Origin: Candidatus Pacebacteria bacterium UBA6180
Lineage (GTDB): Bacteria; Patescibacteriota; Microgenomatia; UBA1400; PJMF01
Length of the DNA: 64,000 nucleotides
Assembly: GCA_002422165.1 (NCBI GenBank)
Contig: DITQ01000008.1
Coordinates: 125,082 to 189,081 of the forward strand
Reading direction: 5' to 3'
Position 1 is the first letter of the stretch. Each line of letters starts with the position of its first letter. Positions 56,870-61,562 of the stretch are shown piece by piece. Both the position numbers and the translations under genes were made by a program. A model generated the notes under the pieces. The model was not told where the DNA came from and ran no database searches. It saw only the letters and a list, made by a program, of their open reading frames with translations.

Positions 56870-57816
56870 ACAATCCGCTCTGGCTACTCATCAAATCTGC
56901 CCGCCCCAAGCAGTGGCTAAAAAATTTTGCCCTTTACGCTGCGCTAGTTTTTTCTGGCTTTTTCTTCTATCAGGAGGCTGGGCAAGCACCTTATTTCGTG
57001 ATCGTCACCTACGCTTTTTTGATTTTTTGTGTCCTGACTTCAAGTATTTACTTAATCAATGATCTGATCGATATCGAATCGGACCGCAAACACCCTTTCA
57101 AGAAAAACCGCCCTTTGGCCGCTGGCAGTTTGCCCGTACCCATCGCCGTTTTTAGCGTGGTCACTGGCTTGGCGATAGTTTTTTTTCTGTCTCTGAATTT
57201 GCCGGTTTTCTTCAAAATCTTAGCTTTTGCTTACTTCATCTTGCAAATTCTCTACTCGACCCATCTTAAAAATTATGCCATTTTTGACATTGTGGCCATT
57301 GCCCTAGGCTTCTTGATCCGCGTCTACGCCGGTGCAGTAGTGGTCAATTTGCACATGAACGTCTGGTTTTTGCTAACGGTGGTATCTGTGTCGCTCTTCA
57401 TGGCTGTGGGCAAGCGGCAAAGTGAACGCACCTTGCTTAGCAGTAGCCACGTCGAGTTTGCCCGCAAGAGCCTCGATCGTTATAGTCCGCGCCTGCTCGA
57501 CCAGTATACTTCGATGTTCGCCACCTCGACTTGGCTAACTTACGCCATTTTCACCTTCCAAAGCTATACTGGTAGCGTTAACTTACTCTACGAGAAATTT
57601 CCCGAGCTCTACTTCATCTTGCCAAAAACTCTCCAGTCACAAAAGCTACTGATGCTGACTTTGCCCTTCGTAATTGTCGGGGTGATGCGCTATTTGCAGC
57701 TGATTTATGAAGAAAATAAAGGCGAGGCTCCAGAGGATGTCCTACTCAAGGATCGAACTTTGCTAACCACGGTCTTTCTGTGGTTTGCGGCAGTGATTTT
57801 TGTAATATATGCTTGA
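56866..57816 (+). CDS. UbiA-family prenyltransferase, decaprenyl-phosphate phosphoribosyltransferase (DPPR synthase)-like
   Basis: RPKQWLKNFALY..., YLINDLIDIESDRKHPFKKNRPLAAG (NDxxDxxxDR plus K..RP.AAG), about 8 TM helices. Confidence 0.6.
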   Translation: MNNPLWLLIKSARPKQWLKNFALYAALVFSGFFFYQEAGQAPYFVIVTYAFLIFCVLTSSIYLINDLIDIESDRKHPFKKNRPLAAGSLPVPIAVFSVVTGLAIVFFLSLNLPVFFKILAFAYFILQILYSTHLKNYAIFDIVAIALGFLIRVYAGAVVVNLHMNVWFLLTVVSVSLFMAVGKRQSERTLLSSSHVEFARKSLDRYSPRLLDQYTSMFATSTWLTYAIFTFQSYTGSVNLLYEKFPELYFILPKTLQSQKLLMLTLPFVIVGVMRYLQLIYEENKGEAPEDVLLKDRTLLTTVFLWFAAVIFVIYA

Positions 57817-58105
57817 AGAAAATAATTTGTTTCACTCAAGATCACGTTCGACTGAAATTAAAGCTTTCCTCAATTAACGATCTTCTTCTCACTCGATGAA
57901 GTCGCTGTCTATAATCAACTCAACAGTTAATCTTACAGTTCAGCTCCTTCAACGGACTTGAGAGAAACAAATTTTTTCTAAGAATCAGTAAATCAAACGG
58001 GTCGGAATTTAGACAAATTGCTGCCAAATTAATTAAAATCTGCTTCTCCAACAGACTTTATTGGAGTGTATTTTTACCTATTTTTTCACTTAGGCAAATT
58101 GTTCT

Positions 58106-59047
58106 CTAATGATCAAGCAACCAATGTTCCACATCCAAGGCGGCCTGGGTGCCCATGCCGGCGGAAACAATGGCTTGGCGGTAACGGTGGTCAGCAACGT
58201 CGCCAGCGGCGAAAACGCCTTCGACTGAGGTTTGGGTGGAATAAATGTCGTGAGACAAGAGTTCGATATAGCCTGCTTTGTCCAGATTCAGCTGGTCGAC
58301 AAACAAACTAGTATTAGGCTTGTGACCGATAGCGAGAAAAACGCCCTCTGCCGACAACTCTCGGACTTGACCATTTTCTTCTACTTTGATGCCAGTAATA
58401 TTCTTGCCGTCGCCAAGAACTTCTCGAAGTTGAGTGTTCCACATTATTTTGACATTGGGATTATTTAAAATGCGTTCCTGCATGATTTTACTAGCCCTGA
58501 AAGCGTCGCCGCGGTGAATAATAGTCACTTGCTTGGTGAATTTGGTCAAAGCCATAGTGTCTTCCATGGCAGAGTCGCCACCACCAATGACGTAGACGTT
58601 TTTATCGACATAAAAAGCAGCGTCACAAACTGCACAAGTGCTGACGCCGCGACCAAAATACTCCTTCTCACCAGGCACACCCAGCATGATGCTGCTGGCA
58701 CCACTAGCGATGATCAGGGCATCTGCCTCGTAGGCCGCTTCGTTTTTTTCTGGATCAGCATTCCAAAGTTTAAAAGGCCGCTGACTCAAATCCACCTTAG
58801 TGATGTGCTCGTACTTAAGCTCTGTACCGAAGCGAGTGGCTTGCTTCTGCATGTCCATCATCAGGGCTGGACCTGCTTTGCCCTCAGGAAAACCAGGGAA
58901 ATTCTCGATGTCGCTGGTGTACATCAGTTGCCCACCAATTTCCAAGCCCGCAAACAGAGTCGTCTGGATGCGCGCCCGAGAAGTGTAAATGGCGGCGGTC
59001 AGTCCAGCTGGACCAGAACCAATAATGGCGAGTTTAAGTTTTTGCAT
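58106..59047 (-). CDS. trxB: Thioredoxin reductase
   Basis: LAIIGSGPAGLTAAIY..., CAVCD redox centre (STCAVCDAAF), GGGDSAMEDT (NADPH GxGxxA). Confidence 0.9.
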   Translation of the reverse strand: MQKLKLAIIGSGPAGLTAAIYTSRARIQTTLFAGLEIGGQLMYTSDIENFPGFPEGKAGPALMMDMQKQATRFGTELKYEHITKVDLSQRPFKLWNADPEKNEAAYEADALIIASGASSIMLGVPGEKEYFGRGVSTCAVCDAAFYVDKNVYVIGGGDSAMEDTMALTKFTKQVTIIHRGDAFRASKIMQERILNNPNVKIMWNTQLREVLGDGKNITGIKVEENGQVRELSAEGVFLAIGHKPNTSLFVDQLNLDKAGYIELLSHDIYSTQTSVEGVFAAGDVADHRYRQAIVSAGMGTQAALDVEHWLLDH

Positions 59048-59072
59048 AATTTGATTTTACTCTAGATTTGGT

Positions 59073-59396
59073 TTAGGCCAAAGCTTTATCAACCATGGCT
59101 TTGAGGCCATCTGGGCCAGGGTAGCCAACTTGACGGTCGACTTCTTGACCATCTTTGAAAACCACGAAAGTGGGAATGCTCATCACCCCATACTTCATGG
59201 CTGGCTCGCGAGCTTGATCGACGTCAACTTTGACAATGCTGGCTTTGCCTTCATAGTCTCCTGCCATCTGATCGACGACCGGCGCTGACATCTGACAAGG
59301 ACCACACCAGACCGCAAAAAAGTCGACCAAAACGACCCCCTTGGCTTCTTCGACCTGCTTAGCAAAATTTTCACTAGTTAAATGTACTGCTGACAT
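59073..59396 (-). CDS. trxA: Thioredoxin
   Basis: WCGPCQ active site; 107 aa. Confidence 0.9.
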   Translation of the reverse strand: MSAVHLTSENFAKQVEEAKGVVLVDFFAVWCGPCQMSAPVVDQMAGDYEGKASIVKVDVDQAREPAMKYGVMSIPTFVVFKDGQEVDRQVGYPGPDGLKAMVDKALA

Positions 59397-59432
59397 TTTT
59401 ATCTTTCTTTAGACCAACTTCTGGCCCATAAT

Positions 59433-59678
59433 TTAATAACGCAAGAGCTCTTTGAGGACTAAGTTGAGTTGAGCGCGGTTTTCATCTTTAGAACAGACGC
59501 CCGCTTCACCAGTCAAAATATCCCGAGCCACCGTGCCGACAGAGTTGCGAACTGCAGCCAACTGTCGAGCAATCTCGACGCAGGGTCGCTTTTCTTCATA
59601 CATCTTGATGATGCCATCCACTTGCCCGCGAATGCGGTTGAGGGAAGCGACAACTGGATCTTTTTTGAGGCCTTGCAT
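59433..59678 (-). CDS. CsoR/RcnR/CstR-family transcriptional repressor (two-Cys, no His: CstR-like thiol/persulfide-sensor type)
   Basis: LNRIRGQVDGIIKMYEEKRPCVEIARQLAAVRNSV...GEAGVC. CsoR-family RxxGQxxGI...C...C spacing, with Glu where CsoR has the metal-ligand His. Confidence 0.65.
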   Translation of the reverse strand: MQGLKKDPVVASLNRIRGQVDGIIKMYEEKRPCVEIARQLAAVRNSVGTVARDILTGEAGVCSKDENRAQLNLVLKELLRY

Positions 59679-59703
59679 AATTAGTATTTAATAATTTTTC
59701 TAT

Positions 59704-59731
59704 AATATACCCTATGGGGGTATGTTGACAA
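59704..59731 (-). promoter_or_regulatory. Sigma70-like promoter (TTGTCA-16nt-TATATT) with an embedded CsoR-type operator palindrome ATACCC-N5-GGGTAT
   Basis: Minus strand TTGTCAacataccccCATAGGGTATATTatag. Palindrome ATACCCtatggGGGTAT at plus 59707-59723 lies between -35 and -10. It resembles the B. subtilis CsoR box TACCCTACGGGGGTA as I recall it. Confidence 0.6.
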
Positions 59732-59741
59732 GGGGCAAATT

Positions 59742-61562
59742 CTAGCCAAGTTTCTTGATTATTGCCTGTTTCTGGACAATTTCAGTCAAAAGCTGATCAA
59801 GGCGAGCTTCTTCCTCACTACTTCGCTCAAGACTGCTATCTAGCTTGCTAATCTCTTCGTTTATACTAGCAATTTCCCGTCGCAAAGCTTCTTTTTTGAT
59901 CATGGTCAGGGTGGTGAGCCATTCTTTTTCCAGATCTTGATCTTTGGCATTTTTTTCGTACTCAGGATTAAGCAGAGCATCCATTAGGGCTTTCTTGAGG
60001 TCTTCAGCCAAGGCGCTGGAGAAGCTTTGCAAACTAAATTTACCTTTGACTAAGAGGAGGCGCTCGATGATTTGCTTGAAACCCAGACTGGAAAAGTTAA
60101 AATCGCTCAGCGTACCAGCTCGCTCCTGAATTTTATCTGGTTCGAAACTAAACAGCAAAAAGAGCAAATATTCTTCGTTACGCTGCTGGTAAGTTTTGAG
60201 AGTGGGCTTACTGGCTGAAACTTCTTCTGGAGTGGTGGAAGTTGCAGCACCAGCCTTAATTTGTCCAAATTTGCTGATATCGGCCTTAAGCAGCGACTCC
60301 TTGACGTTGAGGGCGACAGACAGTTTTTGCAGGTAAAATTCTTTCTCGACGCTATGCTCAATTCCCTCAAGAATGGGAGCTAAATAGTTGATGATTTTGC
60401 GCTTGCCCTCGGCAGTCTTGGGGTCGAAAGCGTCCAGAGCGTGATTAATCAGAAATTCGTAAACCGACACCGCCCCTTCGACGGCTTGACGCCAGACTTT
60501 GGGCTGCTCTCGAGCCAGTTCGTCGGGGTCTTTGATCTTATCCGCCTCAGCTAGCAAAGTCGAGTGCTTGAGGTCAATGACTTTGAGATCGATACCCTTG
60601 GCGCGAACGATATCGATAGCGCGCTCAGTAGCTTTGACCCCAGCAGCATCCGCATCAAGAGCCAGGATGATGGTTTGTACCACTCTGGAGAGTAAATTAA
60701 CCTGGTCAACAGTCAGAGCCGAGCCCTTGATCGCCACCACGTGGTTGACGTGGGCCTGGGCAGAAGAAATCATGTCAAACTCGCCCTCGACCACCACCAC
60801 TTGTTCCTTCTTCTTGATCTCACGAAAAAGCTCGCTGTAACCGTAAAGCATCTTGGACTTGTGATAAAGCGAAGTTTCCGGCGAATTGATATACTTGGCT
60901 TCCTTGGGTGATTGACTGAGGAGACGACCAGAAAAACCAACCACCTGACCACGGTGGTTTTTGAGGGGAAAAATCAAGCGCTCGCGAAAACGATCGTAAT
61001 AGCCACCATTGCGACCTTTGATAATCAGGCCAGTTTTCTCGATCAGTTCCAGCGGATATTTTTTCTTATGGTGCAGGTACTTGAGCAACGAATCCCAAGC
61101 GTTGGTGGCGAAGCCCAGCTGAAAAAGCTTGATCGACTCGCTGGTAGTACCCCGCTGTTTAAGGTAATCACGGCCAACCTGGCCAACCTGGTGCTCCATT
61201 AGTAAGAAGTGGTAATACTCCTTGGCTAAACTAAGAATTTCCAGGAGCTTCTCTCGCTCCTCGTCCTCGCCGCTTCTTTGAAAATCCTGGAGAGTGATGC
61301 CTGAGCGATCAGCCAGACTCTTAAGTGCTTCGTAGAAAGTCACGCCCTCGAAGTTCTGTAGGAAGTCCAAGACATCACCGTTAGCGCCACAGCCAAAACA
61401 GCGGTAACGCTGCAGGGAAGGATTGACGAAAAAAGAGGGTGTTTTCTCCGAGTGAAAAGGGCAACAAGCCTTGTAATTGAGGCCACCGACATCGAGCTTG
61501 ATGCGCTCGCCAATCACCTCGACGATGTTGTTGGCTTCTTTGACGGTGCGTATTTGCGACAT
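59742..61562 (-). CDS. dnaG: DNA primase
   Basis: Zinc ribbon CCPFHSEKTPSFFVNPSLQRYRCFGCGANGDVLDFL; TOPRIM region (VVVVEGEFD...LALDADAAG). Confidence 0.9.
   Translation of the reverse strand: MSQIRTVKEANNIVEVIGERIKLDVGGLNYKACCPFHSEKTPSFFVNPSLQRYRCFGCGANGDVLDFLQNFEGVTFYEALKSLADRSGITLQDFQRSGEDEEREKLLEILSLAKEYYHFLLMEHQVGQVGRDYLKQRGTTSESIKLFQLGFATNAWDSLLKYLHHKKKYPLELIEKTGLIIKGRNGGYYDRFRERLIFPLKNHRGQVVGFSGRLLSQSPKEAKYINSPETSLYHKSKMLYGYSELFREIKKKEQVVVVEGEFDMISSAQAHVNHVVAIKGSALTVDQVNLLSRVVQTIILALDADAAGVKATERAIDIVRAKGIDLKVIDLKHSTLLAEADKIKDPDELAREQPKVWRQAVEGAVSVYEFLINHALDAFDPKTAEGKRKIINYLAPILEGIEHSVEKEFYLQKLSVALNVKESLLKADISKFGQIKAGAATSTTPEEVSASKPTLKTYQQRNEEYLLFLLFSFEPDKIQERAGTLSDFNFSSLGFKQIIERLLLVKGKFSLQSFSSALAEDLKKALMDALLNPEYEKNAKDQDLEKEWLTTLTMIKKEALRREIASINEEISKLDSSLERSSEEEARLDQLLTEIVQKQAIIKKLG

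Follow-up and report, generated by a model that had tools for sequence, protein, structure and literature searches.

A putative thiol-redox repressor of the CsoR family heads a conserved thioredoxin operon in Patescibacteria

Introduction

Repressors of the CsoR family are classed by a W-X-Y-Z code of sensor residues, and the motifs of the characterised metal and formaldehyde sensors (x-C-H-C, x-C-H-H, H-C-H-H, H-C-H-C and P-C-H-x) each contain at least one His (PMC8643695; PMC11672702). The last of these motifs belongs to FrmR, in which Pro2 forms a Cys35-Pro2 methylene bridge (PMC11672702). The CstR proteins have two Cys residues 7-9 Å apart across the dimer interface; persulfides, tetrathionate or H2O2 cross-link them through an interprotomer Cys-Cys' di- or polysulfide, and the operator is released reversibly (PMC8643695). 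Here we describe a CsoR-family gene that stands directly before the thioredoxin genes trxA and trxB in Candidatus Pacebacteria bacterium UBA6180. It lies in a 64-kb stretch of DNA (GenBank assembly GCA_002422165.1, contig DITQ01000008.1, positions 125,082 to 189,081), which we call the window and which holds 54 open reading frames (ORFs). Because every characterised metal or formaldehyde motif has a His and this regulator has none, it belongs to none of those classes.

Thiol-switch control of trxA/trxB is known from RsrA-sigmaR in Streptomyces and from Spx in Firmicutes. In both, a Cys switch responds to disulfide stress by inducing the thioredoxin system, and RsrA is reduced again by that system. 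RsrA is a zinc anti-sigma factor and Spx an RNA-polymerase-binding ArsC-like protein, whereas the regulator of the present locus would be a DNA-binding repressor that occludes a promoter. We know of no described regulator of the Patescibacteria thioredoxin system, and our literature searches found none; full-text searches likewise returned no paper that ties the CsoR family to trxA/trxB or to Patescibacteria. One apparent link between DUF156 and thioredoxin was rejected as a false match to DUF1566 and DUF1560. In the sequence similarity network (SSN) of the family, clusters 6-9 are uncharacterised; clusters 6 and 7 were predicted to sense Cu and cluster 8 Ni/Co, and the main-text descriptions of these clusters do not mention thioredoxin (PMC8643695).

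Results

A CsoR-family protein with two Cys and a Glu at the sensor positions

The ORF at 59433-59678 on the minus strand encodes a protein of 81 residues, MQGLKKDPVVASLNRIRGQVDGIIKMYEEKRPCVEIARQLAAVRNSVGTVARDILTGEAGVCSKDENRAQLNLVLKELLRY. It matched the Pfam family PF02583 (Trns_repr_metal) over residues 6-78 with 63.1 bits against a cutoff of 22.8. A monomer model built with AlphaFold2 (AF2) from 36 homologues had a predicted local distance difference test (pLDDT) score of 91.8 and helices at residues 8-28, 33-64 and 68-78. The model reproduces the three-helix protomer of the family: the Cys at X is predicted to start helix 2, and the residues at Y and Z to lie one turn apart near its C-terminus. 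The top 19 Foldseek matches in the PDB were all CsoR-family proteins, among them InrS, Streptococcus pneumoniae CstR, the Geobacillus, Streptomyces and Mycobacterium CsoR proteins, and FrmR. InrS was the best PDB match by both sequence and structure (E = 1.3e-7, TM ~0.79). The CsoR-family signature that the original prediction had read from this ORF is thus supported by profile, model and fold comparison.

C33 and C62 are the only Cys residues of the protein, and direct reading finds no His. In HMMER alignments to solved structures, C33, E58 and C62 fall on Cys36, His61 and Cys65 of Mycobacterium tuberculosis CsoR and on C30, N55 and C59 of S. pneumoniae CstR, respectively. Exactly two Cys at the C36 and C65 positions and a Glu at the His61 position had been predicted, and the alignments bear this out: the Cys and Glu residues are at homologous positions, and no canonical His emerged. 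The residue before the first Cys is Pro32, where C-H-C members have a second-shell Tyr. The protein scored 33.5 bits with the NCBIfam RcnR model (cutoff 138) and 29.7 bits with the FrmR model (cutoff 133). It reached no NCBIfam copper-repressor cutoff, and its score was far under the RicR cutoff.

A protein search returned 36 homologues with 48-91% identity, the few named ones being from Candidatus Woesebacteria and similar groups. C33, C62, R15 and Q39 are invariant in all 36, and conservation of E58 is at least 90%. By motif inspection rather than by a tool alignment, R15 would be the last Arg of the RLXR motif in helix alpha1 and Q39 the counterpart of Gln81 of Streptomyces lividans CsoR, and both of these residues have been implicated in operator binding (PMC3902906). 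About one third of the close homologues carry a third Cys ('NNC') in the loop between helices 2 and 3, at the column of window residue 69; the window protein does not have it.

A palindrome within the promoter of the operon

The features of the locus, in the order in which they are read along the minus strand, are listed below.

59742-61562, minus strand: dnaG primase gene, then a 63-nt gap before the repressor gene.
59726..59731, minus strand: -35 hexamer TTGTCA, from a promoter scan (TTGTCA-16-TATATT, 10/12 matches).
59707..59723: putative operator, a perfect 6-5-6 palindrome, ATACCC-CCATA-GGGTAT in the minus reading; type-2 CsoR-family site with a TAC-N9-GTA core.
59704..59709, minus strand: -10 hexamer TATATT, from the promoter scan; overlaps the right arm of the operator by 3 nt.
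59433..59678, minus strand: CsoR-family repressor gene, 81 aa, x-C-E-C (C33, E58, C62), no His; from PF02583, PDB alignments, AF2 and Foldseek.
59073..59396, minus strand: trxA, thioredoxin, 107 aa, WCGPC; PF00085 100.5 bits, TIGR01068 115.3 bits against a cutoff of 96.8.
58106..59047, minus strand: trxB, thioredoxin-disulfide reductase, 313 aa, CAVC; TIGR01292 369.6 bits against a cutoff of 343.45.
58034..58098, minus strand: two predicted RNA hairpins directly 3' of the trxB stop, the second with a U-rich stretch after it.

The palindrome at 59707-59723 is ATACCCTATGGGGGTAT on the plus strand and ATACCCCCATAGGGTAT in the minus-strand reading. On the minus strand, TTGTCA (59731-59726) is followed by 2 nt and by the 17-bp box, and TATATT (59709-59704) starts with the final three bases of the box. 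Since the box fills the spacer and overlaps the -10 hexamer, a bound protein would occupy the entire spacer together with part of the -10. The promoter scan therefore agrees with the original prediction, which had placed the palindrome between these two hexamers on the minus strand. Its core, TAC-CCCCATAGG-GTA at 59708-59722, has the TAC-X9-GTA form and the G/C tracts of family operators, which are AT-rich inverted repeats around such tracts and occur as type 1 or type 2. The Streptococcus mitis cst operator used in CstR binding assays is ATATACCCTTATGGGGTATAT, and its arms are identical to those of the window palindrome (PMC8643695). The palindrome is also almost the same as the Streptomyces CsoR operator consensus, ATATACCCCTNAGGGGTATAT, a type 2 site with a TAC-X9-GTA core (PMC3902906).

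The exact pattern ATACCC-N5-GGGTAT occurs once in the window, and none of 100 shuffles contained any copy. The palindrome remained the sole match at up to two mismatches, as did ATACC-N7-GGTAT at up to one, and a relaxed search of the window for further operators found none. The search for additional boxes that had been proposed along with the original prediction, made over the 64 kb, thus returned the promoter box and no other.

The repressor gene and trxA are separated by 36 nt, and trxA and trxB by 25 nt. A terminator scan found no terminator-like site between the three genes. The thioredoxin and the reductase both pass NCBIfam equivalog models (TIGR01068 and TIGR01292), and trxA and trxB lie downstream on the same strand, as had been predicted.

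Conservation of the box and of the thioredoxin genes in close relatives

Scanning one genome for each species located 40 Patescibacteria loci (L001-L040). The regulator gene is followed by trxA and then trxB in all 39 loci that have downstream DNA. Of the 40 loci, 34 have dnaG upstream and 6 a different gene. When the 40 sequences were aligned on the box, ATACCC and GGTAT each carried 2.0 bits per position and were scored as invariant, and the -35 hexamer carried 0.6-1.3 bits. A TTGACA/TTGTCA-like hexamer stands at the same place in the 40 aligned relatives, and the -10 always begins inside the right arm, as TATATT (18), TATAAT (6), TATATC (5) or a similar hexamer. The exact core ATACC-N7-GGTAT was found 36 times in 291,737 bp of the relatives' DNA, one per locus and only at the regulator promoter. 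Three other loci differ from the core at one of its 10 bases, and in L040 a related site, ATACT-GGGGGG-AGTAT, takes its place. This conservation is, by sequence comparison, strong phylogenetic footprinting of a repressor site within the promoter.

Directly upstream of the -35 hexamer (window 59734-59741) is a conserved stretch, AAATTTGCC(T/C)C. Equivalents were seen in L001-L013, L015, L025, L028, L031 and L032, with a duplication in L011, and another copy lies just past the trxB stop in the window (58093-58100). This stretch could be an UP-like element or the site of a second factor. The sequence AATTTGCC is mildly enriched in the window (14 copies vs 7.2 expected), mostly within genes. The leader of the window operon would be about 19 nt long and contains no Shine-Dalgarno-like sequence. 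In many relatives (L004, L006, L008, L010-L013, L022, L029, L080 and others) the start codon is only about 6-10 nt past the -10, and these short distances imply leaderless or near-leaderless mRNAs.

Many of the Patescibacteria-like metagenome-assembled genome records are titled 'uncultured Pseudomonadales bacterium' (L001, L010-L013, L015, L022 and others). Some of these have isolate names with 'PATE' (e.g. HK-STAS-PATE-16), and L003 is titled 'candidate division TM6'. Because such titles conflict with gene content and synteny, they look like labelling errors and were treated as unreliable. One candidate for a csoR-trxB pair outside the candidate phyla radiation (CPR), L041 from Helcococcus, was rejected. 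Its ORFs are those of an ordinary copper locus, copA-csoR with a C-H-C protein, beyond which lie an unrelated methyltransferase gene and trxB.

Distant relatives and the extent of the clade

A full profile search of 1.84 billion representative proteins gave 5770 family members. Among the best 50 representatives, X is Cys in 45, Y is Glu in 39 and Z is Cys in 46; lower in the ranking, C-H-C proteins dominate. Of 51 C-H-C relatives, 42 have Tyr just before the first Cys; none of 50 C-E-C relatives does. Asn at Y was found in just 3 (C-N-C, C-N-L and C-N-T) of 159 aligned domains from 150 proteins.

Genomic context was collected for ten diverse members with about 25-40% identity to the window protein; those with a named organism come from Woesebacteria, Dojkabacteria or 'Patescibacteria group'. 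Thioredoxin is the directly next gene in nine of the ten, and CcdA/DsbD with a redoxin takes this place in the tenth. After thioredoxin there follows a TrxB-type reductase in three cases, glucose-6-phosphate dehydrogenase (G6PD) in one and glutamate dehydrogenase (GDH) in two. The upstream genes vary throughout these loci, and each promoter has a TAC...GTA palindrome. Since the upstream genes vary and the pairing with thioredoxin is kept, the regulator-thioredoxin pair, and not the dnaG neighbourhood, is the conserved unit. The window, all 39 assessable loci and nine of the ten distant subclades combine the C-E-C motif with next-gene thioredoxin and a promoter TAC...GTA palindrome.

The regulator-thioredoxin pairs followed by G6PD or GDH genes are those of L083, L069-L070 and L080. 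These dehydrogenases are possible suppliers of NADPH, and their position suggests that NAD(P)H supply and the thioredoxin system are regulated together. In L079, L082, L074 and L040, ACT-G6/7-AGT boxes, which resemble the type-1 site of RcnR, replace ACCC...GGGT; on these sequences the operator type varies within the thioredoxin-linked clade.

Some clade variants have no first Cys (S-E-C, A-E-C, G-E-C and V-E-C) and others no second (C-E-L and C-E-F). Variants of these two kinds are P0231 (L083), P0046, P0048, P0057, P0078, P0240, P0079, P0089 and P0093. Where the second Cys is missing, some have a Cys two positions before it ('ESCKL'). The P0231 gene is still followed by thioredoxin and was found on many contigs.

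Other features of the window

The hairpin pair after trxB had a predicted folding energy of -18.3 kcal/mol (z = -3.39; 2 of 200 shuffles folded as well) and was not flagged by a simple terminator scan. We regard it, with low confidence, as a possible end of the operon. The gene beyond trxB is on the opposite strand and convergent, and an Rfam search of 57700-59900 gave no match.

The window TrxB (58106-59047) does not have an insertion of about 24 residues in the FAD domain, e.g. GVDQKQLKSLRDEELVKMMQEI-R, which is present in its relatives at about 50-75% identity (337-355 aa) and would fall between residues ~100 and 101. The window trxB ORF is intact, so this difference is in-frame and involves no frameshift. 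The same protein has the motif IIHRGDAFRAS, a stretch that we take to be the counterpart of the NADPH 2'-phosphate-binding HRRDxxR motif of Escherichia coli TrxB. It reads HRGDAFR here, YRGDSFR in close relatives and HRRD in more distant CPR relatives. HRGDAFR in place of HRRD could alter the NADH/NADPH preference of the reductase.

The window holds mostly envelope glycosylation, tRNA synthetase and housekeeping genes. About half of it (1449-31484) is a dense block of envelope glycosylation genes with at least 10 GT2/GT1/GT4 glycosyltransferases, five PMT_2/ArnT-like membrane proteins, a flippase, LytR-CpsA-Psr and nucleotide-sugar enzymes. None of the 54 ORFs is a copper, sulfur-detoxification, HMA or P-type ATPase gene, and the neighbours of the regulator are dnaG and trxA-trxB.

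Discussion

These results suggest that this member of the CsoR/RcnR superfamily is probably a thiol-based redox switch, autoregulated through repression of its own operon, regulator-trxA-trxB, with reactive sulfur among the possible triggers. We infer its DNA binding, inducer, cross-link and reset by thioredoxin as follows. The reduced repressor, presumably a dimer-of-dimers tetramer like other members of the family, would bind the 17-bp G/C-tract palindrome and exclude RNA polymerase from the sigma-70-type promoter. Oxidation of cellular thiols by disulfide stress, peroxide or reactive sulfur species (RSS) would cross-link C33 of one subunit with C62' of its neighbour through a disulfide or polysulfide bridge. 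The cross-linked repressor would have a lower affinity for DNA and the operon would be transcribed. The induced Trx and TrxB would then restore the thiol pool and probably re-reduce the repressor, a homeostatic loop that follows the logic of RsrA-sigmaR/trxBA. We propose that oxidation or persulfidation of C33/C62' derepresses trxA-trxB and that thioredoxin re-reduces the repressor because the controlled genes encode a disulfide-reducing system. Glu58, conserved through the clade, stands where CsoR has its Cu(I)-ligand His and CstR its wedge Asn, and it would tune Cys reactivity or proton transfer.

Several points weigh against this proposal. Binding, inducer and cross-link are extrapolated by analogy for every member of the clade. 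The role given to Glu58 is a guess, and a carboxylate beside a thiol does not obviously activate the thiol. Several variants without the first or the second Cys, P0231 among them, keep the thioredoxin linkage, so a simple two-Cys disulfide cannot be the universal mechanism, and a one-Cys mechanism must exist in some lineages. The search for further operators in the source genome covered 64 kb. Finally, dnaG has no terminator before the operon promoter, and read-through from dnaG could add unregulated transcription of the operon.

CstR from Staphylococcus aureus, Enterococcus faecalis, S. pneumoniae and S. mitis (PDB 7MQ1-3) is the closest described system in its likely mode of action. Fold and size are the same, and identity over the aligned region is about 31-39%; both proteins have two Cys at X and Z without a metal-ligand His, their operator arms are identical (ATACCC...GGGTAT), and an interprotomer Cys-Cys' cross-link that frees DNA is likely to be shared. 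The differences lie in the conserved Glu58, where cluster-10 CstRs have wedge Asn55, in the operon, which is trxA-trxB here but rhodaneses, CoA-persulfide reductase, persulfide dioxygenase or SQR in CstR loci, and in the host, which belongs to Patescibacteria whereas CstR occurs in Firmicutes or Actinobacteria. By this analogy the regulator would work most like CstR, yet it has neither the wedge Asn nor the sulfur-detoxification neighbourhood and is not demonstrably a CstR. The label 'CstR-like' in the original prediction accordingly holds for the x-C-x-C motif class and for the likely mode of action; it does not hold for CstR proper, given the Glu in place of the wedge Asn and the lack of sulfur genes nearby.

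The likeness to CstR raises the alternative that the protein is a true CstR-type sensor of persulfides and other RSS in sulfidic, anoxic habitats, with Trx and TrxB acting as protein-persulfide reductases. Its x-C-x-C motif class is that of SSN clusters 3, 4 and 10 (PMC8643695), its operator arms are those of the S. mitis cst operator, and S. pneumoniae CstR is among its best sequence and structure matches. In addition, thioredoxin-like proteins of S. aureus are reported to reduce protein persulfides (PMC6196236). However, the conserved Glu occupies the position of the defining wedge Asn of x-C-N-C CstRs, and no gene for rhodanese, persulfide dioxygenase, SQR, CoA-persulfide reductase or TauE adjoins any of the 50 loci or occurs in the window. 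It was by genomic neighbourhood that the CstR clusters were assigned. Furthermore, CstRs do not discriminate H2O2 from RSS in vitro (PMC11672702), so that the motif alone does not specify persulfide. We therefore consider a dedicated persulfide sensor rather unlikely.

The Cu(I)-sensing CsoR proteins of M. tuberculosis, Bacillus subtilis, S. lividans and Geobacillus thermodenitrificans share the fold and the type-2 operator with G/C tracts, and they head operons under their own control, as the present gene is proposed to do. The present protein differs in having Glu instead of His at Y, no second-shell Tyr and no copA/copZ. InrS shares the R-P-C context of the first Cys, but InrS, NreA and RcnR need His at W and Y (H-C-H-C or H-C-H-H), and here there is neither a His nor an adjoining metal-efflux gene. 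Sensing of Cu(I), Zn(II), Cd(II) or Fe(II) through a Cys2-Glu site, with the thioredoxin operon as a metal-stress response, would fit a superfamily made up mostly of metal sensors and the rank of InrS as best PDB match. C33, E58' and C62' could form a three-ligand site bridging subunits at the exact Cu(I)-ligand positions, and the gene of one distant relative, P0071, lies between a ZIP transporter gene and genes for CcdA, redoxin, DUF3179 and cupredoxin. Such a metal sensor is nevertheless improbable: the protein has no His, while the characterised metal motifs x-C-H-C, x-C-H-H, H-C-H-H and H-C-H-C all contain at least one; the second-shell Tyr is missing; no metal efflux or chaperone gene adjoins the other 49 loci or occurs in the window; and the scores are far below the NCBIfam RicR and RcnR cutoffs. 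The original prediction had favoured a thiol-responsive over a Cu-sensing protein, and that preference is now strengthened by the absence of His and of the second-shell Tyr and by the thioredoxin linkage in 40 genomes and 10 distant subclades.

An FrmR-type sensor for electrophiles or aldehydes would likewise have a reactive Cys at X, and FrmR structures are among the fold matches, but we find this very improbable because the protein begins MQGLKK without Pro2, has Glu at Y and Cys at Z, scores 29.7 bits against the FrmR cutoff of 133 and has no frmA-like dehydrogenase gene nearby. The idea that the palindrome, a perfect inverted repeat 18 nt past the dnaG stop codon, is a dnaG terminator, an RNA hairpin or a chance feature rather than an operator is effectively refuted, since the predicted RNA fold of the region is no more stable than that of shuffled sequence (z = -1.17) and the minimum-energy structure does not use the palindrome, no U-tract follows, the box is invariant across 40 loci in sequence and not just in pairing (which in the closest relatives involves only 5 bp of the arms), the palindrome persists where the upstream gene is not dnaG, and it occurs nowhere else in 292 kb of the relatives' DNA or in the 64-kb window.

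For the favoured thiol-redox switch, a narrower form can be put forward only tentatively. The x-C-E-C clade may be a dedicated thiol-redox homeostat of Patescibacteria and the first sensor with the CsoR fold to respond specifically to disulfide or peroxide stress, as opposed to persulfide or metal, with a C33-C62' switch re-reduced by its own thioredoxin and the invariant Glu as catalytic acid/base.

The scaffold and the operator of this system are known; the C-E-C sensor triad, the thioredoxin regulon and the host lineage are new, and together these sequence features point to an undescribed redox-sensing branch of the family. The W-X-Y-Z code is thereby extended by a conserved acidic residue at Y. 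According to a review from 2024, the CsoR family has no characterised member specific for H2O2, and this gap blocks a side-by-side study of reactive oxygen species (ROS) and RSS sensing (PMC11672702). A clade tied to thioredoxin and not to sulfur enzymes is an obvious candidate for such a ROS/RSS comparison on one scaffold. Patescibacteria are largely uncultured, and in dozens of their lineages the regulator, operator, promoter and targets can be read from sequence. Such a module offers a handle for metatranscriptomics and heterologous reconstitution, and the invariant 17-bp box is a practical marker for more regulon members in complete genomes. If our reading is true, the regulator could belong to a very small set of conserved transcription factors in these minimal genomes for which an operator can be read.

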